Part shown: positions 16,864 through 47,924 of the stretch, piece by piece
Layout: the number at the start of each line of letters is the position of its first letter
Position numbering within the stretch: position 1 is the first letter of the stretch
From: Candidatus Moraniibacteriota bacterium
Lineage (GTDB): Bacteria; Patescibacteriota; Minisyncoccia; Moranbacterales; UBA1568
Reading direction: 5' to 3'
NCBI GenBank assembly: GCA_030648835.1
Contig: JAUSGT010000001.1
Location: forward strand, 69,010-133,009
Length of the DNA stretch: 64,000 bases
The notes under the pieces: generated by a model
What the model saw: only the letters and a program-made list of their open reading frames with translations
What the model was told of the DNA's origin: nothing
Databases searched by the model: none
Translations under genes and position numbers: made by a program

Positions 16864-18117
16864 TTGATGAACAAAACACAAACAAAGCATTTGGATATGC
16901 CGAAATTTTTATATACCGCAAAAAATATCACTACCGGGGAGAGTTCCGGTGGTGAGATGGACGTCAAGGATGAGAAGACACTGGCTCAGGACCTGCGAGA
17001 GCGGGGGTTGTTGCTGACTTCACATAAGGAAATCGAGACGACCAAATCCATCAACATCAAATTTTTTGATCGTTTTACCTCCATTCCGCTGAAAGAAAAA
17101 ATGGTGTTTATGCGGAATTTGGCGGTGATGGTATCGTCCGGATTGACGGTTTCCCGATCGATCCACAATTTGAGCGTTCAGACAAAAAACAAAAGATTTA
17201 ACAAAATCCTTTTGAGTGTCTACGATGATGTGCAGAGCGGGAAGACGCTCTCGGACGGTCTGGCTCGCTACCCGAGTGTTTTTGATGAGCTTTTCGTCAG
17301 TATGATCGGTGTCGGCGAAGTGAGCGGCAATCTCGAAGAGGTGCTCGAAATTCTGGCGCTCCAATTGGAAAAAGAGAGTGATTTGAGAAGCAAGGTGCTG
17401 GGAGCCCTTATTTATCCGGCGGTGATTGTGGTGGCGATGATCGCTATCGCTATCCTGATGCTTACATACATTCTTCCGAAAATCACCGGTGTCTTTCAGG
17501 ATATGGATGTGAAATTGCCGGCCACGACGCTGTTTATTATGGGCATGAGTGATTTTCTTCGCAACCACGCCATACTGAGCGTGGTGGTTTCCATAACAGT
17601 GGTGTTCGCGGTAAAGATCTTTTCCGGAACAAAACCCGGCAAACGTTTTTTCAGTCTGGTCTTCGTTTCTCTCCCGATTGTCGGCAATATTGTTATCAAG
17701 GTGAATTGCGCGCGGTTTGCCCGTATCTATAGTTCTCTTCTGAAAAGCGGTATCTCGGTGGTGAGCGGCCTGGCTATTGTATCCAAGACATTGGGAAACG
17801 TGTACTACAAGGAGGCTTTGGCGGAGAGCATAGCGGAAGTCCAAAAGGGCGTTGACTTGAGTAAAGTCATTTATCGGTATCCGCGGATATTTCCGGTTCT
17901 TGTACCACAGATTCTCGAAGTGGGTGAGGAAACCGGGAAAACAGAATCGGTGTTGCGACGTTTGGCGGAATTCTATGAAGAGGAAGTGTCGCAGATTACC
18001 AAGAATATGTCGTCGATTATTGAACCGATTCTCATGCTTCTTATCGGCACGTCGGTGGGATTTTTCGCGGTCGCGATGTTACAGCCGATGTATAGTGTCC
18101 TCGAAAACATCAAGTAG
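16864..18117 (+). CDS. pilC: Type IV pilus assembly platform protein PilC/GspF family
   Basis: Two GspF-type repeats (...SMIGVGEVSGNLEEVL... and ...ILEVGEETGKTESVL...) and three TM segments. Confidence 0.85.
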   Translation: MMNKTQTKHLDMPKFLYTAKNITTGESSGGEMDVKDEKTLAQDLRERGLLLTSHKEIETTKSINIKFFDRFTSIPLKEKMVFMRNLAVMVSSGLTVSRSIHNLSVQTKNKRFNKILLSVYDDVQSGKTLSDGLARYPSVFDELFVSMIGVGEVSGNLEEVLEILALQLEKESDLRSKVLGALIYPAVIVVAMIAIAILMLTYILPKITGVFQDMDVKLPATTLFIMGMSDFLRNHAILSVVVSITVVFAVKIFSGTKPGKRFFSLVFVSLPIVGNIVIKVNCARFARIYSSLLKSGISVVSGLAIVSKTLGNVYYKEALAESIAEVQKGVDLSKVIYRYPRIFPVLVPQILEVGEETGKTESVLRRLAEFYEEEVSQITKNMSSIIEPILMLLIGTSVGFFAVAMLQPMYSVLENIK

Positions 18118-35504: not shown

Positions 35505-35812
35505 TCCATTGTAAAAAGCATATGAAATTACAGCTAGAAAAATTTGGCACGACGCTCATATCGCGGGAATTGGGGAGCGAGGCCTTCAAGGCATTCCAGT
35601 CGACTCTGCGCGAGCTTTCTCCTGATGAAGAGCTAGAAATAGATTTTTCTGGTGTACTGACATTGTCACCGTCATGGGCTGATGAATTTTTAAGTCCATT
35701 GCTGAATCAATTGGGTGACAGATTAATTCTTTTACCGAGTGACAATCTTTCAGTACACGCAACGCTCCGAATTCTTCAAGAGGCTAATAAGCAGAGTTTT
35801 ACGATGAAGTAA
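35480..35812 (+). CDS. STAS-like DUF4325-family protein (putative partner-switching antagonist)
   Basis: LEIDFSGVLTLSPSWADEFLSPLL resembles DUF4325. 25-nt overlap with the GHKL gene. Confidence 0.5.
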   Translation: MFSKDRILIHCKKHMKLQLEKFGTTLISRELGSEAFKAFQSTLRELSPDEELEIDFSGVLTLSPSWADEFLSPLLNQLGDRLILLPSDNLSVHATLRILQEANKQSFTMK

Positions 35813-35882
35813 TGTACCCCGCCCGCCGTGCTTGCTCTGTGAAATTGCAAAGCACCGACGGAGTCGGATTCCGCTTCGGAAA

Positions 35883-35922
35883 AAAGCCAAGAGCAGACAG
35901 AGTAAATATACTGAGCAGTGAA
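35883..35922 (+). repeat. Family-R repeat, copy 2 (variant AGCAGACAGAG)
   Basis: AAAGCCAAGAGCAGACAGAGTAAATATACTGAGCAGTGAA, followed by the conserved leader GTATTAAGGACTGGAAGAAATAAGAAT ATG. Confidence 0.6.
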
Positions 35923-35949
35923 GTATTAAGGACTGGAAGAAATAAGAAT

Positions 35950-36591
35950 ATGGCGTATATCTTTCTTGATGAAAGTGGTGATTTGGGGTTTGACTTCAAA
36001 AAGAAGGGCACTTCCAAGTTTTTTATTGTTACCATTCTCTTTACCGAAGACTCCAGAGGAGGGATTGAAAAGGTGGTGAAGAAAACACATTCAGAACTTG
36101 CGAAGAAATTCAAAAGACGTGTTGGTACATTGCATGCGGTTCAAGAAAAGCCCATTACCCGTACCCGTTTTCTGAAACGGATTGCCGAGAAGGAATGTGG
36201 TGTTATGGCTATTTATCTCAACAAGAAGAAGGTACATACGCATCTCCAGGACGAAAAACAAGTGCTTTACAATTACGTGACCAATATTCTCTTAGATAGA
36301 ATCTATACGAAAAAAATTCTTTCCCCGGATCTTGTCATAGAGCTCATCGCATCTCGGCGCGAAACCAACAAGTTTCTTAATGAAAACTTCAAAGATTACT
36401 TGAGCCGGCAAATAAAGAATAACCACAAAGGTCTTATGAAAATTTCCATTAAAACACCGGCTGAAGAGAAGTGTCTTCAGGCAGTAGACTTTCTGAGTTG
36501 GGCAATTTTTCGTAAATATGAGCGCGGAGATGAAAGTTACTACAATCTTTTCAAGAGAAAAATCATCGAGGAGAATCCTTTATTTCCGTAA
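35950..36591 (+). CDS. DUF3800-family protein
   Basis: N-terminal MAYIFLDESGD and C-terminal LQAVDFLSWAIFRKYE are DUF3800 hallmarks. Internal start of the 35812 ORF. Confidence 0.65.
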   Translation: MAYIFLDESGDLGFDFKKKGTSKFFIVTILFTEDSRGGIEKVVKKTHSELAKKFKRRVGTLHAVQEKPITRTRFLKRIAEKECGVMAIYLNKKKVHTHLQDEKQVLYNYVTNILLDRIYTKKILSPDLVIELIASRRETNKFLNENFKDYLSRQIKNNHKGLMKISIKTPAEEKCLQAVDFLSWAIFRKYERGDESYYNLFKRKIIEENPLFP

Positions 36592-36873
36592 AAACAAAAC
36601 CTCGTACGCTGTCTAGAGCAACCATCCGGAAGCCCACGTACGAGGATTTACTTGTATGCCTGTATTGTAGTAAATAAAACAAGACTTGTCAAGGGAAGGG
36701 GGCTGACGTATTTTTGCGTAAAAAATGGAATATTTTGGCTTGTTTTCTTTACGGAAGGGGGCATTTGGAGTAGATTGGTGATAGGTTTATCCCGCTTGCC
36801 GCGTTGCTGTACGAGATAGTCATGAATTTTCGGATTATACGGTAAAAGTATTGAGTTTATTCATTTTCCGTAA

Positions 36874-36913
36874 AAAGCCAAGAGCAGACAGAGTAAATAT
36901 ACTGAGCAGTGAA
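36874..36913 (+). repeat. Family-R repeat, copy 3
   Basis: Identical to the copy-2 variant. Immediately preceded by a stop codon in the peptide frame, so not part of an intact gene. Confidence 0.6.
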
Positions 36914-36935
36914 TCCATAGAATAGTATTGATGAT

Positions 36936-36963
36936 ATTCTCACATTCTGCAGAATGTCAGAAT
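36936..36963. promoter_or_regulatory. 28-bp palindrome P3 (hybrid of P1/P2, one mismatch) upstream of cupin copy 2
   Basis: ATTCTCACATTCTGCAGAATGTCAGAAT, about 80 nt upstream of the 37045 start. Confidence 0.5.
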
Positions 36964-37044
36964 GATTGGGTGGGTGGGGGGAGGTGGTATGATGGGTGTA
37001 CCAGAGGGGAAGATTCGTGTATTAAATAATAATATTTCAATACT

Positions 37045-37443
37045 ATGAAAGGATTCAACACACACATAGAAAAAGATACGCTCGAGAACACCGACTTCCG
37101 TCGCGTGCTTTACACAGGCTCGCACAGCCAGCTGGTATTGATGAGTTTGAAACCCAAAGAGGAGATCGGCCTCGAAACACATACCGGAAACGACCAGTTT
37201 TTTCGGATAGAAAAAGGCCACGGCATGTGCATCATCGACGGCCATGAGTATGCACTCGCCGATGGTTCGGCTATCGTGGTCCCGTCCGGCGCCAAACACA
37301 ATATCATCAACACGTCGGAGACAGAAGACCTCAAGCTCTATACCGTCTACTCTCCGGCGCACCATAAGGACGGCATTGTCAGGGCTACCAAAGAAGAAGC
37401 CGAAGCCAACGAAGCGGAGTTCGACGGCACAACAACCGAATAA
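37045..37443 (+). CDS. Cupin-domain protein, copy 2 (duplicate)
   Basis: Near-identical to 32257..32655, including ~80 bp of upstream leader and ~60 bp downstream. Confidence 0.75.
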   Translation: MKGFNTHIEKDTLENTDFRRVLYTGSHSQLVLMSLKPKEEIGLETHTGNDQFFRIEKGHGMCIIDGHEYALADGSAIVVPSGAKHNIINTSETEDLKLYTVYSPAHHKDGIVRATKEEAEANEAEFDGTTTE

Positions 37444-37465
37444 ATATTGGCCACTGCCAAAAATG

Positions 37466-37505
37466 AAAGCCAAGGGCAGGCATGATAAATATACTGAGCT
37501 GTGAA
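37466..37505 (+). repeat. Family-R repeat, copy 4
   Basis: AAAGCCAAGGGCAGGCATGATAAATATACTGAGCTGTGAA, then the leader GTATTAAGGATTGGAAGAAATAAAATT ATG. Confidence 0.6.
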
Positions 37506-37532
37506 GTATTAAGGATTGGAAGAAATAAAATT

Positions 37533-38018
37533 ATGAAAAAAACTAGTAGCAAGGGGATTGTTGGCGTATCTGGTGAATATTTTGTGGCTGCGGAACTTTC
37601 TCAGCGAGGCATTGTGGCTACCTTGACTCTCAAAAACACTCCCTATATCGACATACTTGCCACAAACTTAGAAAAGGGCACAACCGCCAACATTCAGGTG
37701 AAAACTATGTCTGTCGATAACAATGCTGGTTGGAGATTGGGGGAAAAAGATGGATTGCCTTCAAATATAAAGAATCACTTTTATGTGCTCGTTGATTTAC
37801 ATGGACCTGGTAAATTGCCCGAATATATAATCATACCCAAGAAAGTATTAGCAGATTTTATAAATAAGGGTCATGCTGAATGGCTTTTAGGAAAAAAGAA
37901 GGATGGCTCCTCTAGAAAAAATACTGGCGTTAGAGTTTTTGATCCAAACAGAAAAGTGTCTACTCGAAAATTTGCCGAAAAATACGTAAATAATTGGAGC
38001 ATATTAGATTTGTGGTAG
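37533..38018 (+). CDS. PD-(D/E)xK nuclease-fold protein (putative)
   Basis: GVSGEYFVAAEL...IDILATN...ANIQVKT matches an E...D...(Q/E)xK arrangement. Internal start of the 37482 ORF. Confidence 0.45.
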   Translation: MKKTSSKGIVGVSGEYFVAAELSQRGIVATLTLKNTPYIDILATNLEKGTTANIQVKTMSVDNNAGWRLGEKDGLPSNIKNHFYVLVDLHGPGKLPEYIIIPKKVLADFINKGHAEWLLGKKKDGSSRKNTGVRVFDPNRKVSTRKFAEKYVNNWSILDLW

Positions 38019-38026
38019 TAAAAGTT

Positions 38027-38374
38027 ATGGATAAGATAAAAGATTTGACTAAAAGAATACTAGCTTTCCGCAATGCTCGGGACTGGAAGCAATTTCACAA
38101 TCCGAAAGACGTGGCGCTCTCGCTGGTTTTGGAAGCGGCGGAGGTTATGGAACATTTCCAGTGGAAGAACCCGGCGGAAATTGAAGAGTATGTAAAAAAG
38201 CATAAGAAAGATATAGGCGAAGAATTGGCTGATGTTTTCAATTGGGTGTTGCTGCTGAGTCATGATTTGGGGATAGATATTGTAGAAGCGGCCAAAAAGA
38301 AAGTTAAAAAGAACGAAAAAAAGTACCCCGTAGAAAAAGCCAAAGGCAGGCATGATAAATATACTGAGCAGTGA
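38027..38374 (+). CDS. MazG-like nucleoside triphosphate pyrophosphohydrolase (small all-alpha NTP-PPase)
   Basis: ILAFRNARDWKQFHNPKDVALSLVLEAAEVMEHFQWK...ELADVFNWVLLLSHDLGIDI. The C-terminal tail is encoded by Family-R copy 5. Confidence 0.75.
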   Translation: MDKIKDLTKRILAFRNARDWKQFHNPKDVALSLVLEAAEVMEHFQWKNPAEIEEYVKKHKKDIGEELADVFNWVLLLSHDLGIDIVEAAKKKVKKNEKKYPVEKAKGRHDKYTEQ

Positions 38375-38375
38375 A
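38336..38375 (+). repeat. Family-R repeat, copy 5 (forms C-terminus of MazG-like gene)
   Basis: AAAGCCAAAGGCAGGCATGATAAATATACTGAGCAGTGAA. Confidence 0.6.
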
Positions 38376-38420
38376 TTGATTACCTCGCTGAGCAGGATTT
38401 CGCTAGGAATGTTAGGATAT

Positions 38421-38436
38421 ACGTAACGAGTTACGT
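38421..38436. promoter_or_regulatory. Palindrome ACGTAACGAGTTACGT upstream of AbrB-like gene (autoregulatory operator candidate)
   Basis: A 7-2-7 dyad. A related leader (GGTAGGATGGACGTAACGAGTTAGGTAACAGG) precedes the kinase-like gene. Confidence 0.4.
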
Positions 38437-38456
38437 AACAGGTTACATAACAAACT

Positions 38457-38615
38457 ATGAACAAAGAAATTAGAAAACTCACTAAGTTAGGGGGAAAATC
38501 CATCGGGCTGACCTTGCCGATTGAATTAGTTCGGGAGTTGGGGTGGAGGGAAAAACAGAAAGTGACCGTCAAGCGTGTTCGTGGGGGTGTGATGATTAAA
38601 GATTGGAAGAAATAG
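38457..38615 (+). CDS. AbrB/MazE/SpoVT-family small DNA-binding protein (antitoxin- or controller-like), 52 aa
   Basis: LTKLGGKSIGLTLPIELVRELGWREKQKVTVK fits the swapped-hairpin beta-barrel family. Not in the ORF track (under 60 aa). Confidence 0.45.
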   Translation: MNKEIRKLTKLGGKSIGLTLPIELVRELGWREKQKVTVKRVRGGVMIKDWKK

Positions 38616-38658
38616 GACTAATCTTGCAATAATATTAATGACGTGTTATTATTAGTGT

Positions 38659-39621
38659 ATGTCTGGTAAACAAGAAATAAAAATAATTCAAGAAACTTTC
38701 GACATAAACGCTATTTATGCAAGACGTGTTTTTGCTTCGGTGAATATTTCAAACTTTTTAGAGGAAGCGAGACAAATTATAACGAGCAAACCAAAGCCAT
38801 TTGTGAAATGGGTTGGGGGGAAGCGACAATTACTCAAGCAGTTTCGACTCCTTGATCTTTATCCACCGGACGAGTTTGATCCTGAGAAGGCAAGATATTT
38901 TGAGCCGTTTGTAGGGGGAGGCGCAGTGTTCTTTGATTTACTTCCGAGAAAGGCTTATTTGTCTGATCTTAATTTTGAGCTTGTCACAACTTATAATGTT
39001 ATTAAAAATGATGTTGAAAAGTTGATTACATCGTTAAAAAAACAAAAATATAATAAAGAGTATTATCTGAAAATCCGTTCAAAAAATCCTGAAAGGTTGT
39101 CTGATCTACAAATTGCTACTCGTTTTATATTTTTGAATCGCGCCGGCTTCAATGGGATGTATCGTGTAAATAGTAAAGGAGGGTTTAATGTTCCTTTCGG
39201 TAAATACGAGAATCCGCTTATTTGTGATGAAAAAAATCTTCGGAAAGTTTCGAAGGCGTTGCAGAATGTTGAAATAAAACACCAAGACTATAAGTTCGTT
39301 TTGAAGAAAGCAAAGAAAAGAGACTTTATATATTTTGATCCGCCATATCATCCAGTAAGTAAAACGGCAGCGTTTACTTCATATACCTCACAAGGTTTTG
39401 GGGAAAAAGAACAAATAGAATTACGTGATACATTTTTGAAACTTCACAAGAGAGGTTGTTTTGTGATGCTTTCAAATTCTGATGCGCCTTTTATTAATAA
39501 AATTTATTCTGAAATTAAAAAATATGGTGTCAGAATTAATAAGGTTGAAGCAGGGCGCGCAATAAATTCAAAGGCTTCTGGAAGGGGTAAGATCACAGAA
39601 ATATTGGTAACTAACTATTAA
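38659..39621 (+). CDS. Dam-family N6-adenine DNA methyltransferase (alpha class)
   Basis: FVKWVGGKRQLL, EPFVGGGAVFF, FLNRAGFNGMYRVN, IYFDPPYHP and LSNSD align with Dam motifs. Confidence 0.9.
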   Translation: MSGKQEIKIIQETFDINAIYARRVFASVNISNFLEEARQIITSKPKPFVKWVGGKRQLLKQFRLLDLYPPDEFDPEKARYFEPFVGGGAVFFDLLPRKAYLSDLNFELVTTYNVIKNDVEKLITSLKKQKYNKEYYLKIRSKNPERLSDLQIATRFIFLNRAGFNGMYRVNSKGGFNVPFGKYENPLICDEKNLRKVSKALQNVEIKHQDYKFVLKKAKKRDFIYFDPPYHPVSKTAAFTSYTSQGFGEKEQIELRDTFLKLHKRGCFVMLSNSDAPFINKIYSEIKKYGVRINKVEAGRAINSKASGRGKITEILVTNY

Positions 39622-39625
39622 TCTT

Positions 39626-40384
39626 ATGGCAAATAATAATTCGTGGAATAAAATTTTCGAAGATAATAATATTTTAGAGCACGATTTTTCTAAAAGCCCT
39701 TTTTATTTGTCTGCAGAAATGATAAAAAAATCAGTACAAGAGTTTAAGAAAACTAATGAGAAAGAGGTGCGTTGCTTATGTAAGATGGATACGCGAGAAA
39801 GCGTTCCAGAAATAATGAGAAGAAATGGATTGGTTTTGTTGCCAGTCAAAAATAAATATTATGTGATAGTAAACGGCGAAGGATATGTCGATATACCTGA
39901 AATCAATAGTGAAGCCGAAATCTACAACACTAAATTGGATTTTGATTTAGACACAGCGAAAATTGGAAACTCAGAAATGCAGCATCTTGATTTTGCTTAT
40001 GCTTCAAGCCTTATTAGAACATTCATGAGCGATCCTTCGCTAGTTCTAACAATTAGAGGGAGGAAATATACACCAGAGTTTAGTTATAAAATTGGTAACA
40101 ATATAATTGATACGAAGGGTGTTCAAACTGAAGTTGATGCCGGTTATGAAGGAAAGGACAAGATTGTTTTGATAGAAGCAAAGAACTCATCTACTAAAAA
40201 TACAATCATTAGACAATTGTATTATCCATATAGACAATGGGCAGAACACACAAAAAAGGAAGTCTTCTTATTATTTTTCGAGAAGAGGATTGATGAATAT
40301 TTGATATGGCAATACAGGTTTGCTGATAAAGACAGCTACGATTCTATTAAATTAGTTAGATCTAAAAAATATAAAATTGTTTAA
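39626..40384 (+). CDS. Putative type II restriction endonuclease (between two MTases; MboI/DpnII-like gene order)
   Basis: Sits between two DNA MTases in an M-R-M arrangement and has a PD-(D/E)xK-like VDAGYEGKDKIVLIEAK. Family not verified. Confidence 0.5.
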   Translation: MANNNSWNKIFEDNNILEHDFSKSPFYLSAEMIKKSVQEFKKTNEKEVRCLCKMDTRESVPEIMRRNGLVLLPVKNKYYVIVNGEGYVDIPEINSEAEIYNTKLDFDLDTAKIGNSEMQHLDFAYASSLIRTFMSDPSLVLTIRGRKYTPEFSYKIGNNIIDTKGVQTEVDAGYEGKDKIVLIEAKNSSTKNTIIRQLYYPYRQWAEHTKKEVFLLFFEKRIDEYLIWQYRFADKDSYDSIKLVRSKKYKIV

Positions 40385-41137
40385 GTGTCTGAAAAAGAGA
40401 TAAAACTGCATCCGGATGAGTTTGAAATGGAGTGCACTACAGTATGGGCATTTCCTCGTCGTGGTAATTGGGCTACACACAAGTCGGATTGGCGTGGTAA
40501 TTGGGCGCCAGAAGTTGCTCGAAATTTGATATTGCGTTATTCAAAGGAGGGTGATCATCTACTAGATTGCATGATCGGTGGTGGAACAACGGCAATAGAG
40601 GCAAAAATATTGAATCGTCATATTACTTGCGTTGATGTTAATGAAGAAGCTCTCAAACGGACAAGAGACGCTTTGAAATTTGATGTTGATAACAAAGCAA
40701 AACAACGAATAATAAAGTGCGATGCTCGAAACATGAGTTTTATCAAGGACGGAGAAATAGATTTTGTTCTCACTCATCCACCATACGCGGATATTATAAA
40801 ATATAGTGATGGAAAATTAGAGGATGACTTATCAGGTATACATAATATAGATGCCTTTGTAGATGAGATGGAGAAAGTTATCAAAGAAATGTTTCGAGTA
40901 CTAAAGAAAGGAAAATATTGTGCGATTTTGATGGGGGATACAAGACGGAATAAAATGTATCAGCCTCTCGCATTTAAGGTAATGGGTAGATGTCTGAGCG
41001 CAGGATTTGTCTTGAAAGAAGATATTATTAAAAGGCAGTTTAACTGTAAAGCAACTGGTTTTTGGGTGAATAGGTCAAAAGAGAGCAACTTTCTTTTAAT
41101 TATGCATGAACACTTATTTATTTTTCAGAAAATTTGA
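40385..41137 (+). CDS. DNA methyltransferase, N4/N6 family (second MTase of R-M module)
   Basis: AdoMet motif LLDCMIGGGTT and catalytic LTHPPYADI. Confidence 0.8.
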   Translation: MSEKEIKLHPDEFEMECTTVWAFPRRGNWATHKSDWRGNWAPEVARNLILRYSKEGDHLLDCMIGGGTTAIEAKILNRHITCVDVNEEALKRTRDALKFDVDNKAKQRIIKCDARNMSFIKDGEIDFVLTHPPYADIIKYSDGKLEDDLSGIHNIDAFVDEMEKVIKEMFRVLKKGKYCAILMGDTRRNKMYQPLAFKVMGRCLSAGFVLKEDIIKRQFNCKATGFWVNRSKESNFLLIMHEHLFIFQKI

Positions 41138-41250
41138 GATGCCAAAAAAGATACCATGAAAGATGTGAAAGATAAAGTAAAAAGATTTATTAATTGCATA
41201 GGTGAAAAACGTGGTGACGTTAATGAAATATTGATCATAAATTATTAAAT

Positions 41251-42924
41251 ATGCTTAACCTATTTAAAACTAAAAAAATACTTCAAGGCCCAGACTGGTC
41301 TTTTCAAGACGAAGCCGTAAAAAAAGTAGTTTCTGATTTTTTAAAGGAGCCACAAAGCAAAAAATTATTAGTCATCCCAACTGGAGGGGGGAAAACTATT
41401 GTTGGTTTTAAGGTCATTAACGAACTAATCGAAAAAGGCTTTCTTAAAAATGGCAAAAAAGCAGTTTGGATAGTTCATACAAAATGGTTAAAAAAACAAA
41501 CTGAACTAAAGCTAGTTTCAGCAATTGAAAAATTTCATTTTAATAAAGAAATACTCAGTATTCTTGAAATAAGAATGAAGTCAGATGCGCGTAATAATAT
41601 TTTTTTAACTCAAAAATCAAAAGAATATAAGATGGTAGTTATTGATGAGGCTCACCATTCAGCTGCAAATACTTACAAAGATTTTTTTAGACCTGATGTA
41701 AATGTACTTGGTCTAACAGCTACGCCCACAAGAACTGATGATCTCACGCTTGATTTTAAGGATATATCGTATGCAATTACTTTTAACGAACTTGTAAAAA
41801 GAAAAGTTATACTTTTACCAAAATTTATTACTGTAGAAACTGGGTTAACTATTGACGCCAGATCATTAAATTACTATTCGGAAAATGATTTTATTAAATT
41901 CGATATTGATGAAAGAAATAATATTATTGCCGAGAAAATATTCTTACTTAAAAGAAATAATAAAAGATCTTTTAATAAAATAATAATTTTCGTTGGATCT
42001 AATGCACATGTTAAGGAATTGTATGAAATACTGAAGAGAAAAAATAAGTTTTATGGAAACTTGTTCAAGTATGTTGGATACATATATAGTGGTGATAATA
42101 ATGATTTAAATATAGATAATGACTCATATTTAGAGAAACAACAGGGAATCAGCTCGTCAATATTAGTTAATTGTATGATTTTAAATGAAGGATACGACGA
42201 TCCTTCTATTGACACGGTAATAATGGCTACACCAAGTAACTCTATACTTTACTATATGCAATGCGTCGGGCGCGTGGTGCGTAATCCGGGTGGGTATAGC
42301 TCGAATGCAAATGTGGTGGAGATGGTAGATAAATTACCAAACATAAATTATAGGATTGATAACCGCTGGCTTTTTGCTGAAATTTCAGATCTCCTAGAGC
42401 CCGAGGTCATTGACGTTAGTTATGACTTTAACAACAAGGCCTCAGTTATTAGGAAGATTCTTTTGGAACACAAGGTCAAAGCTAAATATATTGATTTATT
42501 TGATGAGAAACAAAGCTTAGAGGATTTCACCTTACTCCTATTTGCAGACGCGCCAAATTATGAAGCTTCGACATGGAAGCCAATATATTTATTTGAAAAA
42601 AATCGTTCCAAATATATAGATGCTTTTAATAAAATCTCTGCTAATGTTTCTGAATATTCACGCTATAATGATGAATTTGTTTTTTTCCAGACTCTCAATT
42701 TTTCTAAAGACAATTATTATTTTAGGTATCCAGAAATGCGAATATCTCTCATACTAGCCCTTGAAAGAGCTAATAATTTAAAAAATTTAAAACAAAAGGT
42801 TGATTGTATTAAATACTATACTTTTCATGAAACACAATATAAAGCTTGGTGGAAAATTATTATTTCTTTGCTATTTAAATCATTAACTAAAATTTATGCA
42901 AACCTTAAAGGAAGTAGAGCTTAA
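41251..42924 (+). CDS. SF2 DEAH-box helicase (ResIII-like)
   Basis: Motif I VIPTGGGKT, II VIDEAHH, III LGLTATP and VI QCVGRVVR. Confidence 0.8.
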   Translation: MLNLFKTKKILQGPDWSFQDEAVKKVVSDFLKEPQSKKLLVIPTGGGKTIVGFKVINELIEKGFLKNGKKAVWIVHTKWLKKQTELKLVSAIEKFHFNKEILSILEIRMKSDARNNIFLTQKSKEYKMVVIDEAHHSAANTYKDFFRPDVNVLGLTATPTRTDDLTLDFKDISYAITFNELVKRKVILLPKFITVETGLTIDARSLNYYSENDFIKFDIDERNNIIAEKIFLLKRNNKRSFNKIIIFVGSNAHVKELYEILKRKNKFYGNLFKYVGYIYSGDNNDLNIDNDSYLEKQQGISSSILVNCMILNEGYDDPSIDTVIMATPSNSILYYMQCVGRVVRNPGGYSSNANVVEMVDKLPNINYRIDNRWLFAEISDLLEPEVIDVSYDFNNKASVIRKILLEHKVKAKYIDLFDEKQSLEDFTLLLFADAPNYEASTWKPIYLFEKNRSKYIDAFNKISANVSEYSRYNDEFVFFQTLNFSKDNYYFRYPEMRISLILALERANNLKNLKQKVDCIKYYTFHETQYKAWWKIIISLLFKSLTKIYANLKGSRA

Positions 42925-44044
42925 GTTTGATCAACTTTTACTTGACCCAAATAATCCTCGTTTTGCTAAGCATAGCGATGAGCTTGTTGCTGAAGATGAC
43001 TATGAGGAAATGCAGTCCGAGACCTTTTCAAAGATGATTCAGAGGGAAAACAACTTTGAAATTGCGGAGCTTGCAAAAAATATTAGCAAAAATGGGTACC
43101 TAGGTTTTGACAGGATGTTTGTTAAAAAATTAAAAGGATCTAAGTTTCTAGTTATTGAAGGCAATAGAAGGTTAGCTGCCATTTATTTTCTTCTAAAGCA
43201 GGAAGAATCACACCGCACAAGAGGAGCTCTCGCCCCAGAAATTAAAAAAACATTTTTAAAGATACCCTGTGTTGATCTTACAAATTGGGAAACGGAAGAT
43301 ATAAAGAGGTTGCTTGGCCTCAGACACTATGATTCTGTAAAAGATTGGAGGCCCCTGCCAGGTTCATTCAATCTTTTCTTAACGTATATGGCGGAATATG
43401 CAAAAGTGAACAATATTGAAATCTTGAATAGCGACCACGCAAAGCATTTTATTTATGATCAAAATATTAGTAGAAAGATAGCAGATATCTATGCAATGAA
43501 GGAAGCGAGGGTTAAGTCAATGATCTTAACTTACAGAGTATATCTTCAAGTTTTGGAATATCACAACGATATCAACTTTGAAACAACGAATCTTTTTTCC
43601 ATAATTGAAGAGACTATAAGTAAGGAAATTTTGAGGAAAAGATTTGAGTTTGATCCATCCGCGGGCCAGTTTTCTGAAAATGGACTAGAATTGTTTATTG
43701 ACTTATGTATTGGAAAAGATGGAAGTGCCCCAGTTATAACTGAAGTGTCACGCGGCGAATCTACTCTAAGAGACTATGCTTATGTTCTACAGGAAGGGAG
43801 TGACTACGATCGTGAACGAATAGAGCTGAACAAAGAAAAAAGTGGTGATGTGAAAGCAGATGTTAAATCAAGTCAAAATCAAAGAAATTTAATAAATACT
43901 CTGAAGCAAATTAAATTAGAATTAGGAAAAATTAATCTTGACCAGATAAAGATTGATGATATTACAGACCGTGAAAAAGAAATTATCGATGATCTACAGG
44001 AAACACTGAACAAGCTAAAAGGGGCATCAGGGGGAAAACTTTAA
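42896..44044 (+). CDS. ParB/Srx-fold nuclease-like domain protein
   Basis: LLLDPNNPRF (ParB box I-like) and VIEGNRRLAAIYFL (GxRR motif). 29-nt overlap with the helicase gene. Confidence 0.7.
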   Translation: MQTLKEVELKFDQLLLDPNNPRFAKHSDELVAEDDYEEMQSETFSKMIQRENNFEIAELAKNISKNGYLGFDRMFVKKLKGSKFLVIEGNRRLAAIYFLLKQEESHRTRGALAPEIKKTFLKIPCVDLTNWETEDIKRLLGLRHYDSVKDWRPLPGSFNLFLTYMAEYAKVNNIEILNSDHAKHFIYDQNISRKIADIYAMKEARVKSMILTYRVYLQVLEYHNDINFETTNLFSIIEETISKEILRKRFEFDPSAGQFSENGLELFIDLCIGKDGSAPVITEVSRGESTLRDYAYVLQEGSDYDRERIELNKEKSGDVKADVKSSQNQRNLINTLKQIKLELGKINLDQIKIDDITDREKEIIDDLQETLNKLKGASGGKL

Positions 44045-44049
44045 ATAGT

Positions 44050-44991
44050 ATGAGTGATCTTTACTTTCGAAAAACTTACAGTGAATTCGTTGAGTTTGTT
44101 TCCAACACTAATGATGAACTTATTATCTTATGTCCGTATATAAAACTAGAACCATTAAAATTGCTATTAGAAAAAGTTAAACCAGGAATAAAGGTAATAG
44201 TTGTAGCAAGATGGAAAATTAGTGATTTGGTATTTGGGAGTTCTGATATTGAGGTTTTTGAATATTTGAAAAGTCTTAATCATAGTTTTTACATTAACAA
44301 TAAAATACACCTTAAGGTCATTATTAAAGATAAAAGGAATATATTAATTGGAAGTGCAAATATAACAGGATCTGGGCTTGGGCTGTTTGATAGTTCAAAT
44401 ATTGAGGCTATTGCCATCGAGAGCTTAGATGAGAAGTATTTACCATCAGTATATTCAATACTAAGAGAATCAATAGAAGTCGATGATGTTTTGGTTAATA
44501 CAATATCTGAAAAGTTAGAAGGGTTTCAAAATGTTAGAGAAGAAAAAGACAAAATTACTGCTGAATTGGGGGAATTAGAAAAACAGATATTTATAAAAAA
44601 GAAAAAAGGGATTTTGGTTTATGATTTTCCTTTTACAGGATCGCCGGCAGTACTCCTTAAAGCTATAAATGAAAAAGATATTAATGATACTGTCCAACAT
44701 GATCTTCAGGTATTAAAATTAACTACTAGAGAGATTAATCTTAGTTTATTGAGGGAGGCATTTTTAACGTCAGACGCCTATATTTGGCAAGAACAAAATA
44801 TCCCAGAAGAAGCTCTCTTTGGAAAGTATTCGGAGTTACTTCATAATGCTCTAATTGATGATCCTAAGCCTTATCGAAAACAGGTAAAGGAGTTAGTAGT
44901 AAATATGTTTGTTTGGACATCAGAACTTTCAGACGATTATGTTATAAAAAAATATAATCATACCCAATCTCTAGTCAGGAGACAAAATTAA
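44050..44991 (+). CDS. PLD-family (HKD) nuclease-like protein
   Basis: A single HKD motif HLKVIIKDKRNILIGSAN (H-x-K-x4-D-x6-GSxN). Confidence 0.75.
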   Translation: MSDLYFRKTYSEFVEFVSNTNDELIILCPYIKLEPLKLLLEKVKPGIKVIVVARWKISDLVFGSSDIEVFEYLKSLNHSFYINNKIHLKVIIKDKRNILIGSANITGSGLGLFDSSNIEAIAIESLDEKYLPSVYSILRESIEVDDVLVNTISEKLEGFQNVREEKDKITAELGELEKQIFIKKKKGILVYDFPFTGSPAVLLKAINEKDINDTVQHDLQVLKLTTREINLSLLREAFLTSDAYIWQEQNIPEEALFGKYSELLHNALIDDPKPYRKQVKELVVNMFVWTSELSDDYVIKKYNHTQSLVRRQN

Positions 44992-44999
44992 TATACGGA

Positions 45000-45467
45000 A
45001 TGAAGAAAAGTATTACTGATATCAATTGGATGAGGTTCAAAACGACTAAAGGTCAAGAGTTTGTTGTGGGTGTAGATTTTACCGCAGAAGACGCATTCAT
45101 TAAAGCTAAAGAATTGCGACAAGAAGGAAAAGCAATAGATGCTCTAGGTGTAATCGATGTATCACTTTATTTAGATTGGAATAGGCCTGCTGCACATAAT
45201 ATTAAGGCAAGCATTTTACTTACTTTAAAGCGATTTGGTGAAGCAATTAGTTCGTGTGATGAAGCAATTCGACTGAATCCGAATTTGGCGGAGTCTTTTA
45301 ATAATAAAGCAGTAATATTAAAGGCATCTGAGAATTATGAGGATGCACTTACCTTGATTGAGAAAGCCCTTGATTTAAATCCAGATAATCCCGCACTTAT
45401 TTATAATAAGGAGAGTATTTTAGAAGCTCTGCGAAATCAAAATGGTCTAAATAGGAAAATGGGCTAG
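45000..45467 (+). CDS. TPR-repeat protein
   Basis: Three or more TPR-like repeats (AISSCDEAIRLNPNLAESFNNKAVIL...ALDLNPDNPALIYNK). Confidence 0.7.
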   Translation: MKKSITDINWMRFKTTKGQEFVVGVDFTAEDAFIKAKELRQEGKAIDALGVIDVSLYLDWNRPAAHNIKASILLTLKRFGEAISSCDEAIRLNPNLAESFNNKAVILKASENYEDALTLIEKALDLNPDNPALIYNKESILEALRNQNGLNRKMG

Positions 45468-45543
45468 GTACTTTTTTCTTGCAAAAGGAGTACAAAGGCG
45501 GCACAACTGAATAGCGAACTATCGAGAGAGTGGCGGTGGGGGG

Positions 45544-45572
45544 CTTGCTATTTTCATAAAAGTATGCTATAA
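45544..45572 (+). promoter_or_regulatory. Sigma70-like promoter (TTGCTA-17-TATAAT)
   Basis: Near-consensus -35 and a perfect -10 with 17-nt spacing, about 125 nt upstream of the AbiEii-like gene. Confidence 0.5.
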
Positions 45573-45654
45573 TGGGTGTGTAAAAGAAGAAAAAAATAAA
45601 AACCATCCAAAATATTAAAAGAAGTTAGGAAAGAGCCATATTCACAAGATATTC

Positions 45655-45687
45655 CACACCCCAGTCTTCTGGGGTGTTTTTATTTAT
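45655..45687 (+). terminator. Rho-independent terminator-like hairpin between promoter and AbiEii-like gene
   Basis: ACACCCCAG tctt CTGGGGTGT followed by TTTTTATTTATT, 12 nt before the start codon. Confidence 0.5.
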
Positions 45688-45699
45688 TAACCCACTAGT

Positions 45700-46908
45700 A
45701 TGTTAGGTAAAGAAGAAATTGATCAGAAAGCGGCGGAATTTGGTTTAAATCCTGTAGATGTAGAAAAGGATTATGTTTATGGATGGCTTTTAAATTCCAT
45801 TTACTCGGACTCTTCTTTGGGGGACCTGCTTGTGTTAAAAGGTGGAAATGCTTTAAGAAAAGGTTATCTGCTAGGGACACGGTTTTCTAAAGACCTAGAT
45901 TTTTCTCTAGAAAAAGGAATACAAATAGATTTTCTTCACGAAGAATTAGATAAAGTTTGTTCAGTAGTCAATGCTCAAACTCAAGTAAAATTTGAACTAG
46001 ATCGGACTAGGGTTGAACCTAAGAATCTGCCGATTGCTAACCTTGATGTGTTGGAGGCAAGACTCTATTTTAAGGGTTTTTATGGGGAAGAGACTATTTC
46101 TCTTAAAACGCAACTAGATATCACCCAGTTTGATAAGATCTACCTCCCAGTTCAGTCAAGGAAAATTCTGCATCCTTATTCAGACGCAGAAGCTTGTAGT
46201 GGAAATATCAAATGTCAAAAAGCTGAAGAAATTGTTGCTTCTAAACTTAATAGTCTTCTCCATAGAAGGAAAGTCTGTGATTTATTTGATCTTCTTAAGT
46301 CTACGATGTTTACCAACGATGTTTTGTTGGATAGATCAGAGGTAGTTAAAACTTTTCTGAAGAAGACTATTTATGAGGCTACTCCAGATACACCAAAACA
46401 ACAGCTTCTTAGCACTCCTTTGGAAGAGTTCCGTCCATTTTGGGGAAGTCTGGTGACTCCAAATGCTAGTATCATCCAATTTGATGATGTGGTGGCAAAC
46501 TTCGGAGTTTTAATTAGTAGTTTTTTTGACTTGGTAGCTCCTTTATCTCCACAATTTGTTCCAGCTGGAGCTTTTGGTGGCTCCAGAAGATATGGGTCGT
46601 CTATGATGCGGTATGGGAGTGTGCCTAGTTTTTTCTCAGCTGGTATACGAAATATCATTATTAATGCCGGAAGAACTCAGAAGCTTATTCAGCTTACCTA
46701 TGACAACTATACAAGGTTAGTAGAACCGTATTCAATGGAGTATTATGTTCGAAAATCAGACGGGGTAGGATTGGAATATTTTTGGGGATATGATACAACT
46801 GGTGGAAAATCAGGAGAACAGTCGATAAAGAGGTTCATTTGTGACAAAATACAATTTGCCAAAGAAACAGATAGGGGCTTTAATCCAAGGTTTGCGGTTG
46901 AATTTTAA
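45700..46908 (+). CDS. AbiEii/DUF1814-family nucleotidyltransferase (abortive-infection toxin-like) with ~100-aa C-terminal extension
   Basis: EKDYVYGWLL...LVLKGGNALRKGYLLGTRFSKDLDFS is the AbiEii signature. No AbiEi-like gene is adjacent. Confidence 0.8.
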   Translation: MLGKEEIDQKAAEFGLNPVDVEKDYVYGWLLNSIYSDSSLGDLLVLKGGNALRKGYLLGTRFSKDLDFSLEKGIQIDFLHEELDKVCSVVNAQTQVKFELDRTRVEPKNLPIANLDVLEARLYFKGFYGEETISLKTQLDITQFDKIYLPVQSRKILHPYSDAEACSGNIKCQKAEEIVASKLNSLLHRRKVCDLFDLLKSTMFTNDVLLDRSEVVKTFLKKTIYEATPDTPKQQLLSTPLEEFRPFWGSLVTPNASIIQFDDVVANFGVLISSFFDLVAPLSPQFVPAGAFGGSRRYGSSMMRYGSVPSFFSAGIRNIIINAGRTQKLIQLTYDNYTRLVEPYSMEYYVRKSDGVGLEYFWGYDTTGGKSGEQSIKRFICDKIQFAKETDRGFNPRFAVEF

Positions 46909-46922
46909 TTAGATAGGAAAGT

Positions 46923-47528
46923 ATGAATAATGCCTTTGATGAAATTTTAGAGAAATCGAAACGAGATATGAAAGAAATCTCGGATGAATTTAATGTCAAA
47001 TTTAGAGAATTCGATACTAAGTTGGAATCATCACGGAAACTAAGTATTTCAGCAATATATCAAATAGTTATTCTGTCATCTAGTATCGTTGGATTTTCAG
47101 TGTCCCTTTTTTCGATCCCTGTCTTGCAGTCTAGATTAAATTTGGATAACCTCCGTTTTTCTTGGTATTTTTTTATGTCGGTTATTATGTTAGGATTCTT
47201 TATTCTAATTTTTGAGGGAAGAGCAAAATATGCAAAAACATGGAAAAATTTTCAAGTGAGTAGATTTCCAGATGCGGGTGATTATAATTACACGATTAAA
47301 GAAAAAATTATTGCAACATCTATTGTTATATTAACTATCTTTTATCCTGCGAATTTAATATTCAACAGGGTTTACAAGGAGGAAAGTGAAAAAGCTTTTA
47401 AGCAAAGAATAAACGGATTTGTAGTACACAAATTAGCGAGTATAGAAAACGCATTAATTTTTCTAGAAAACATCCTTTTTATATTATTTATATGTGGATT
47501 AATTATACTAGTTTCAAGTTTTTCATAG
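46923..47528 (+). CDS. Hypothetical membrane protein (201 aa)
   Basis: Four predicted TM segments, AT-rich codon usage like the island. Confidence 0.45.
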   Translation: MNNAFDEILEKSKRDMKEISDEFNVKFREFDTKLESSRKLSISAIYQIVILSSSIVGFSVSLFSIPVLQSRLNLDNLRFSWYFFMSVIMLGFFILIFEGRAKYAKTWKNFQVSRFPDAGDYNYTIKEKIIATSIVILTIFYPANLIFNRVYKEESEKAFKQRINGFVVHKLASIENALIFLENILFILFICGLIILVSSFS

Positions 47529-47669
47529 ATGAAGAAAAGAGAGTCAGATACCTTTTTGATACGAATTTCTCAGTCTCTGGGCTTCCTCCATAGGCGGACA
47601 GGGGGTTTTTGTTTGGGTGTATACTGAACAAATGCAGATGTCATTCAATAATTAAGGCAATAAAAGAAT

Positions 47670-47924
47670 ATGGATGAGCACGTTGAGAAGGAAGGACTCA
47701 AACATCTTGAGAACATAGAGCAGGACCTCGACGAGATAAAAGAACGCACGCCGACGCCGCGGCGTGCTTTTACCTATGGTCTGTGGCAAGGGGCAGGGGC
47801 ACTCATCGGAGGCATTCTGGCGCTGACTCTCTTGGGCTGGGCATTATCGTTCTTCGGGATCATTCCCGGCTTTGCCGATGTTGCCAAGTACTTCCAAGAT
47901 ATTGTGAGCAACTTTCGCCGCTAG
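47670..47924 (+). CDS. Small membrane protein (84 aa)
   Basis: Charged N-terminus plus a double TM hairpin (GLWQGAGALIGGILALTLLGWALSFFGII). Confidence 0.45.
   Translation: MDEHVEKEGLKHLENIEQDLDEIKERTPTPRRAFTYGLWQGAGALIGGILALTLLGWALSFFGIIPGFADVAKYFQDIVSNFRR

Follow-up and report, generated by a model that had tools for sequence, protein, structure and literature searches.

The window analyzed here is a 64,000-nucleotide (nt) stretch of the genome of Candidatus Moraniibacteriota bacterium (assembly GCA_030648835.1, contig JAUSGT010000001.1, positions 69,010 to 133,009), and the gene in question encodes an AbiEii-like (DUF1814) nucleotidyltransferase (NTase) fused to a predicted C-terminal WYL domain, hereafter NTase-WYL. 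This gene has no AbiEi partner and lies behind a promoter, a short putative leader RNA and an intrinsic terminator. Our analysis favors, at a probability of roughly 0.5, a stand-alone NTase-WYL effector whose transcription would be gated by attenuation through this portable promoter-leader-terminator unit. The features on which the argument rests are listed below by their positions in the window.

45545-45573, plus strand: sigma-70-type promoter with an extended -10 (-35 TTGCTA at 45545-45550, 17-nt spacer, TG at 45565-45566, -10 TATAAT at 45568-45573)
45580-45627, plus strand: purine- and A-rich 5' leader segment, which holds both TAAAAGAAG 9-mers and resembles the leader of locus L057, not that of locus L140 (both described below)
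45628-45655, plus strand: conserved core, GGAAAGAGCC followed by hairpin P1 (AUAUU-CACAA-GAUAU), closed by GGA...UCC
45656-45689, plus strand: intrinsic terminator, with stem ACACCCCAG/CUGGGGUGU, loop UCUU and U-run UUUUUAUUUAUU
45700-46908, plus strand: NTase-WYL open reading frame (ORF), 402 residues (Pfam AbiEii, PF08843, E 1.8e-19; PADLOC AbiEii, E 7e-45)
45700-46545, plus strand: AbiEii/DUF1814 nucleotidyltransferase domain, residues 1 to ~282 (Pfam, PADLOC, motifs, Foldseek)
46546-46617, plus strand: low-complexity linker of variable length, residues 283-306, predicted to be disordered (pLDDT, the predicted local distance difference test score, <50)
46627-46878, plus strand: predicted C-terminal WYL domain, residues ~310-393 (AlphaFold2 (AF2) model, Foldseek)

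The first-pass annotation, made from the sequence alone, had described the ORF as AbiEii-like, and this identity is borne out by the Pfam and PADLOC matches, including a full-length match to the PADLOC model PDLC02317 (E 1e-41). The NTase motifs (GG48-49, S63-K-D65-L-D67, K182, R189 and D194/D197) are invariant in 27 homologues, and the fold of the domain matches the DUF1814 NTase JHP933 (4ok0/4o8s) in Foldseek (E 1e-7). The AF2 model of the ORF (mean pLDDT 85) consists of three parts, namely the NTase domain, the disordered linker, and a helix followed by a five-stranded barrel. This last part (helix at residues 314-325, then five strands; pLDDT ~83-94 as 10-residue block means) was matched by Foldseek to the WYL domains of BrxR (7qfz), DriD (7tzv/9cu3/8tp8) and CapW (9c5g) with probabilities of 0.98-1.0 and E values of ~1e-3, and it contains the strongly conserved motifs VEPY, EYFWGYD, GGKSG and IKxFxCDKI. 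The structural model thereby identifies as a WYL domain the C-terminal extension that had initially been considered of unknown function.

A search of 5.8 billion proteins returned 1391 matches at E<=1e-5, and the best 120 of these relatives, distributed across Patescibacteria, Acidobacteriota, Proteobacteria, Planctomycetota and other groups, are all ~400 residues long and match from end to end with 52-76% identity, which makes the C-terminal 100 residues a trait of the family. The WYL domain alone, used as the query, recovered 178 representative clusters, the full-length ones mostly of 385-470 residues with the C-terminal domain. Two proteins, P0200 (826 residues) and P0289 (1780 residues), each contain seven tandem copies of the WYL-like subtype found in the NTase. 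No NTase-WYL relatives were found in viral contigs (IMG/VR), and blastn searches of phages and plasmids gave no match. The architecture is already known on paper, since a WYL domain fused to an "AbiGII-like nucleotidyltransferase (DUF1814)" was listed by Makarova et al. 2014 (PMC4012209); experimental work on the fusion was not found in the literature searched. The ORF is an uncharacterized, partner-less variant of a known toxin family, in an architecture noted before. Toxins with the DUF1814 domain modify tRNA 3' ends, and in MenT1, MenT3 and AbiEii, binding of the antitoxin leads the toxin to phosphorylate itself on a Ser/Thr beside the DxD motif, which switches it off (PMC11375011; bioRxiv 10.64898/2026.01.19.700257). 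Ser63 of NTase-WYL, two residues ahead of the DxD, is invariant among homologues and, judging from its position in the motif, may be equivalent to this phospho-acceptor.

None of the eight neighbouring proteins in the window matched AbiEi in Pfam or PADLOC. The neighborhoods of 38 full-length NTase-WYL loci from many phyla were then compared all-against-all, with ORFs of >=60 residues within 3.5 kb included, and no neighbour family common to several loci was found; the only multi-locus ORF clusters were antisense shadows of the NTase-WYL gene itself. In addition, none of 20 upstream ORFs at these loci contained an AbiEi domain. Given the lack of both a conserved neighbour and AbiEi, the family, which is widespread, is solitary at all 38 loci examined, so that the missing partner reported for the window at the outset extends to the whole subfamily. 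At loci L015, L017, L018, L022 and L005, which encode distant members of the family, an upstream ORF of 87-442 residues without a Pfam match shares 4 nt with the start of the NTase-WYL gene (ATGA-type overlap); these ORFs have no detectable similarity to one another and could be lineage-specific partners.

NTase-WYL thus falls outside the two-gene definition of the AbiE and MenAT systems, although its enzyme domain belongs there. Like AbiE (AbiEi/AbiEii; Lactococcus, Streptococcus agalactiae) and MenAT (M. tuberculosis), which are DUF1814 NTase toxin-antitoxin systems of type IV, now proposed as type VII, it has a DUF1814 NTase with the GG, S-x-D-x-D, K...R and DxxD motifs. Unlike them, it has no AbiEi/MenA (COG5340) upstream in the window or at the 38 related loci, it carries a fused WYL domain, and its operon lacks autoregulation by AbiEi. 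The WYL fold and a defence context, which for NTase-WYL is the genomic island described below, are also found in the WYL regulators BrxR, CapW, DriD and PafBC and in the Cas13d accessory protein WYL1; these are helix-turn-helix (HTH)-WYL transcription factors or accessory proteins, whereas the WYL domain of NTase-WYL is fused to an effector enzyme and no HTH is present.

The promoter ahead of this gene (10/12 matches) was the best site in a 3-kb scan (44800-47800); it is the one proposed in the first-pass annotation, apart from a 1-nt offset in the coordinates, and its -10 position would place the transcription start near 45580. The A-rich stretch of ~80 nt described downstream of it proved to be 82 nt long (45574-45655) with 42 A (51%), and the GC hairpin was likewise confirmed, with a stem of 9 bp, 6 of them GC, and a 4-nt loop (45656-45677) followed by TTTTTATTTATT; the U-run ends 12 nt ahead of the ATG at 45700. 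The scanned region contains 5 terminator-like sites, where shuffles lead one to expect 1.8. The scan listed no promoter-like site between the terminator and the ATG. The unit is present in one copy in the 64-kb window, and an Rfam search (E<=1) over 36-49 kb gave no match.

Two weakly similar segments of ~36 nt had also been reported within the A-rich stretch, and these are a chance resemblance. The only part common to both is the 9-mer TAAAAGAAG, and a repeat of that length occurs in 155/2000 dinucleotide shuffles (8%); beyond it the identity is 12/26, which was reached in 290/2000 shuffles. Tandem Repeats Finder (TRF) detected no ~36-nt period, only an 8-nt A-rich one, and the TAAAAGAAG pair is absent from the homologous leaders (L057, L140). 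Several other possible elements of the leader were considered and rejected. A leader peptide behind the Shine-Dalgarno-like GGAAAGAG has frames that by eye are not conserved, L140 having an indel of 1 nt and L057 a stop codon behind the fourth codon. Antisense pairing of the 5' part of the leader with the downstream mRNA was not significant or not conserved (fractions of shuffles reaching the energy 0.05, 0.77 and 0.2). A missing Shine-Dalgarno sequence is uninformative as a clue, because many genes in this genome lack one.

The same promoter-leader-terminator arrangement was found at L057, the locus of the closest homologue (P0002, 76% amino acid identity). There, a promoter TTGACA-17-CATACT with TG lies ahead of the same leader, which is A-rich with GGAAAGAGCU, a hairpin, CCACACCCC...GGGGUGU and a U-run, and the ATG follows 16 nt later; as in the window, no promoter-like site was listed between terminator and ATG. 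The two leaders align locally with a score of 27 (shuffle maximum 20), although third-codon identity between the two NTase-WYL genes is only 0.47 and the DNA upstream of the promoters cannot be aligned (score 8, the same as the shuffle mean). This comparison shows constraint on the leader, which is conserved beyond neutral expectation.

A further instance of the unit, L140, came from a permissive metagenome pattern scan, in which it was the 1 true instance among the 120 matches listed, and was identified with nhmmer (E 5e-7). At this locus, a promoter TGgTACAAT and the leader unit precede a gene for an unrelated coiled-coil membrane protein of ~448 residues, and over the 54 nt that run from GGAAAGAGCC across the terminator up to where the U-run begins, 51/54 positions are identical to the window. 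The unit is also present in L242, an independent assembly of the same membrane-protein gene. In all four known instances, the unit is co-oriented with the ORF and lies 12-45 nt upstream of it. L057, L140 and L242 all retain the terminator, in which one A-U pair has undergone a compensatory change to G-C, and a covariance model (R1) built from the window and L140 alone, without L057, recovered L057 (E 7.6e-5). When fitted to this model, L057 has 25 additional nt at the apex of P1, folded by RNAfold into a separate stem, and a terminator loop of 13 nt.

Beyond these instances the distribution is restricted. The covariance model had no match at ~60 other loci, and the leader RNA is absent from ~45 other NTase-WYL loci. 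Among the ~60 are nine sequence sets (L229-L232, L237-L241) for three more NTase-WYL loci, which have plain promoters and no terminator. The expectation that the upstream region would be conserved with homologous AbiEii genes therefore held for the closest homologue, L057, and failed for the other NTase-WYL loci checked. Rejected candidates include a terminator 6 nt before the ATG of the homologue in L009, which belongs to the upstream hydrolase gene, and one just before the ATG in L004, which was assumed to be that of the upstream gene, whose ORF ends 66 nt before the ATG; matches in L174 and L155 (non-coding contigs) and 17-mer matches in viral contigs were due to chance. The leader may thus be described as a narrowly distributed candidate RNA motif of Patescibacteria.

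These observations would be consistent with the following model, in which tRNA targeting, autoinhibition by the WYL domain and attenuation are the steps that we infer. If the catalytic domain behaves as in MenT and AbiEii, it would block translation through the addition of nucleotides to the 3' ends of tRNAs. The fused WYL domain may take the place of the missing AbiEi as a regulator in cis, keeping the enzyme off until a nucleic-acid-type ligand is bound, possibly via the phospho-acceptor position at Ser63. The unit upstream would act as a portable module, comprising a promoter, a leader RNA of ~105 nt and an intrinsic terminator, that in a narrow lineage of Patescibacteria precedes defence effectors otherwise poor in promoters. 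Firing of the extended -10 promoter would yield transcripts that mostly stop at the hairpin and U-run, and read-through alone would express the potentially toxic gene; this dependence follows from the absence of any other listed promoter-like site between terminator and ATG in the window and L057. The GGAAAGAGCC/P1 element abutting the terminator may tune read-through and could be the site of action of a factor or ligand. Such low, gated expression would suit a self-contained toxic effector.

An attenuator had been one of two possibilities offered in the first-pass annotation, and it remains viable because the promoter-RNA-terminator layout is real and conserved; we consider it plausible. The unit resembles terminator-based 5' leaders such as riboswitches and attenuators in that it lies in a predicted 5' untranslated region, has a conserved element abutting an intrinsic terminator, and apparently makes expression dependent on read-through. 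It differs from them in that it has no Rfam match at E<=1, no conserved antiterminator and a very narrow distribution.

Several results weigh against this interpretation. No conserved antiterminator was found for the leader, and the one candidate, a complementarity between 45574-45583 (5' GGGUGUG) and 45652-45661, was rejected as not conserved and probably upstream of the transcription start site. Only four instances are known, in three lineages, and the predicted structure has no statistical support: 98% of cells are paired, but with a single compensatory change, and 164/500 shuffles reach the score in an alignment of three distinct sequences only. L140 has a 9/12 promoter-like site between terminator and ATG, so that read-through is perhaps dispensable there. 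Across 1167 nt of coding sequence L140 and L242 show no difference, yet they diverge in the terminator hairpin of the leader; in L140 11908-11935 versus L242 70-97, A is replaced by GG next to the loop and TGT is lost before the U-run. This difference possibly represents strain-level tuning of terminator strength or an assembly error at the hairpin. For the protein, the hidden Markov models of WYL in Pfam gave no match to the C-terminal domain, and its role as a substitute for the antitoxin is pure inference. Finally, the hairpin could simply terminate the upstream operon.

This last point can be extended to a reading in which the unit has no dedicated function, the hairpin terminating the operon of methylase, helicase, PLD and TPR genes upstream and the promoter being an ordinary NTase-WYL promoter that leaks through it. 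It would account for the fact that no other terminator follows the TPR gene, and the L009 terminator, plainly that of the hydrolase gene upstream, provides a precedent. However, the promoter lies upstream of the terminator and not downstream, and three lineages that differ in their upstream genes have conserved the block of promoter, core and terminator, which makes this reading improbable. Somewhat less improbable, though still doubtful, is that the unit represents a small-RNA gene in its own right, or else marks a conserved junction or a recombination hotspot of defence cassettes, with its position before ORFs being incidental and the downstream genes using weak or leaderless promoters of their own. 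In favor of this reading, the unit is self-contained in carrying both a promoter and a strong terminator, the genes on either side of it differ from locus to locus, and TGnTAnAAT boxes are common a few nt ahead of the ATG in this genome; the promoter-like site after the L140 terminator and the clustering of the L140-L242 differences in the terminator point in the same direction. On the other hand, the U-run in the window stops just 12 nt short of the ATG, with no promoter-like site listed in between, no recombinase occurs nearby, the leader has no significant complementarity to the downstream mRNA, and the window holds a single copy.

The other possibility offered in the first-pass annotation was a type III-like toxin-antitoxin locus, in which the terminated RNA of ~105 nt would be a trans-acting antitoxin that neutralizes NTase-WYL, for example via the WYL domain, with the terminator setting the ratio of RNA to toxin as in ToxIN. 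In common with ToxIN, CptIN and TenpIN, the locus has a promoter, a short non-coding RNA, an intrinsic terminator and a toxin-like ORF in this order on one strand; a protein antitoxin is missing, the DriD and CapW structures show WYL domains binding single-stranded nucleic acids, and the two NTase-WYL loci resemble each other in the purine-rich 5' part of the leader, in which L140 differs. Unlike those systems, the locus has no tandem repeats, its toxin is not an endoRNase and lacks the ToxN fold, and its RNA is not specific to one downstream protein, the same conserved core preceding the unrelated coiled-coil membrane protein in L140 and L242. Moreover, the ~45 NTase-WYL loci without the RNA indicate that the family does not need it. 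Because the repeats are missing, the protein is not an RNase, two unrelated proteins are served and the family otherwise lacks the RNA, a toxin-specific, ToxI-like RNA antitoxin is unlikely, and we regard a type III-like system overall as a long shot; of the two possibilities, only the attenuator remains viable. More remote still appears a variant without repeats, in which the WYL domain would bind the purine-rich, single-stranded 5' tail of the RNA and so keep the NTase off, until phage-induced loss of the unstable RNA freed the toxin. If true, such a repeat-free, WYL-mediated RNA antitoxin would be functionally type III-like with a new toxin class.

The genes around the NTase-WYL unit place it in a defence context, within an AT-rich island at ~36-48 kb with a GC content of 0.29-0.40 (~0.48 outside) that is crowded with defence-type genes (Pfam, PADLOC).

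35812-45467: AT-rich defence island upstream of the NTase-WYL gene (Pfam/PADLOC)
45000-45467, plus strand: TPR protein, the last gene of the methylase-helicase-ParB-like-PLD cluster; no AbiEi
46923-47528, plus strand: membrane protein of 201 residues, 14 nt past the NTase-WYL stop, with a Shine-Dalgarno sequence

The island contains DUF3800, a Dam-type methylase with DUF6996/6997, an N4/N6 methylase, a ResIII helicase, a ParB-like protein with matches to the PADLOC models PDC-M38A (1e-25) and PD-Lambda-5_A (2e-15), a PLD/DrmC-like protein and the small TPR protein. The block of helicase, ParB-like, PLD and TPR genes may be a separate multi-gene system. The TPR gene ends at 45467, leaving a gap of 232 nt before the NTase-WYL ATG, in agreement with the ~230 nt first estimated, and it is not conserved beside NTase-WYL homologues at the 38 loci compared. 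A 10-bp hairpin without a U-run, GUACUUUUUU...AAAAGGAGUAC, occurs at 45468-45493, directly after the TPR stop codon. Downstream, the 201-residue membrane protein is probably co-transcribed with the NTase-WYL gene in the window. It is not a conserved partner: the downstream gene is different at every other locus (DUF4238 in L057), and the 201-residue protein has no homology to the membrane protein downstream of the unit in L140.

At the GC-content boundary of the island, a GC-rich perfect palindrome (47746-47767) scores as a bidirectional terminator and lies inside an 84-residue DUF5665-like ORF (47670-47924). Elsewhere in the window, TGnTAnAAT-type boxes are found 0-8 nt ahead of the start codon at several genes (starts 6339, 16864, 24833 and 34785), overlapping the TTG start at 16864, and many genes of this genome are missing a Shine-Dalgarno sequence. 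This pattern suggests that leaderless or near-leaderless mRNAs may be frequent in this Moranbacteria genome.

The membrane protein that follows the unit in L140 belongs to a family of coiled-coil and transmembrane proteins of ~445 residues in Patescibacteria (P0121-P0160), usually encoded between hsdS and hsdR of type I restriction-modification operons. Members are located as follows.

L224, 3001-4350: coiled-coil membrane protein family member
L225, 42-1373: coiled-coil membrane protein family member
L226, 3001-4335: coiled-coil membrane protein family member
L140, 11979-13146: coiled-coil membrane protein family member, behind the unit

The position of these relatives between hsdS and hsdR indicates that the L140 protein is a defence-associated cargo gene, and the family may be considered a candidate defence effector embedded in restriction-modification operons, where its members are without the leader.

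The DUF1814 toxins AbiEii and MenT are understood as two-gene systems that are switched off by a partner antitoxin. The widespread single-gene form with a fused WYL sensor raises the question of how the enzyme stays harmless and what signal releases it. Regulatory RNAs of Patescibacteria are, to our knowledge, almost unexplored, and the leader is a candidate for a new RNA motif from this group. It apparently travels between unrelated defence genes, which hints at a shared transcriptional gating of toxic effectors in these bacteria.

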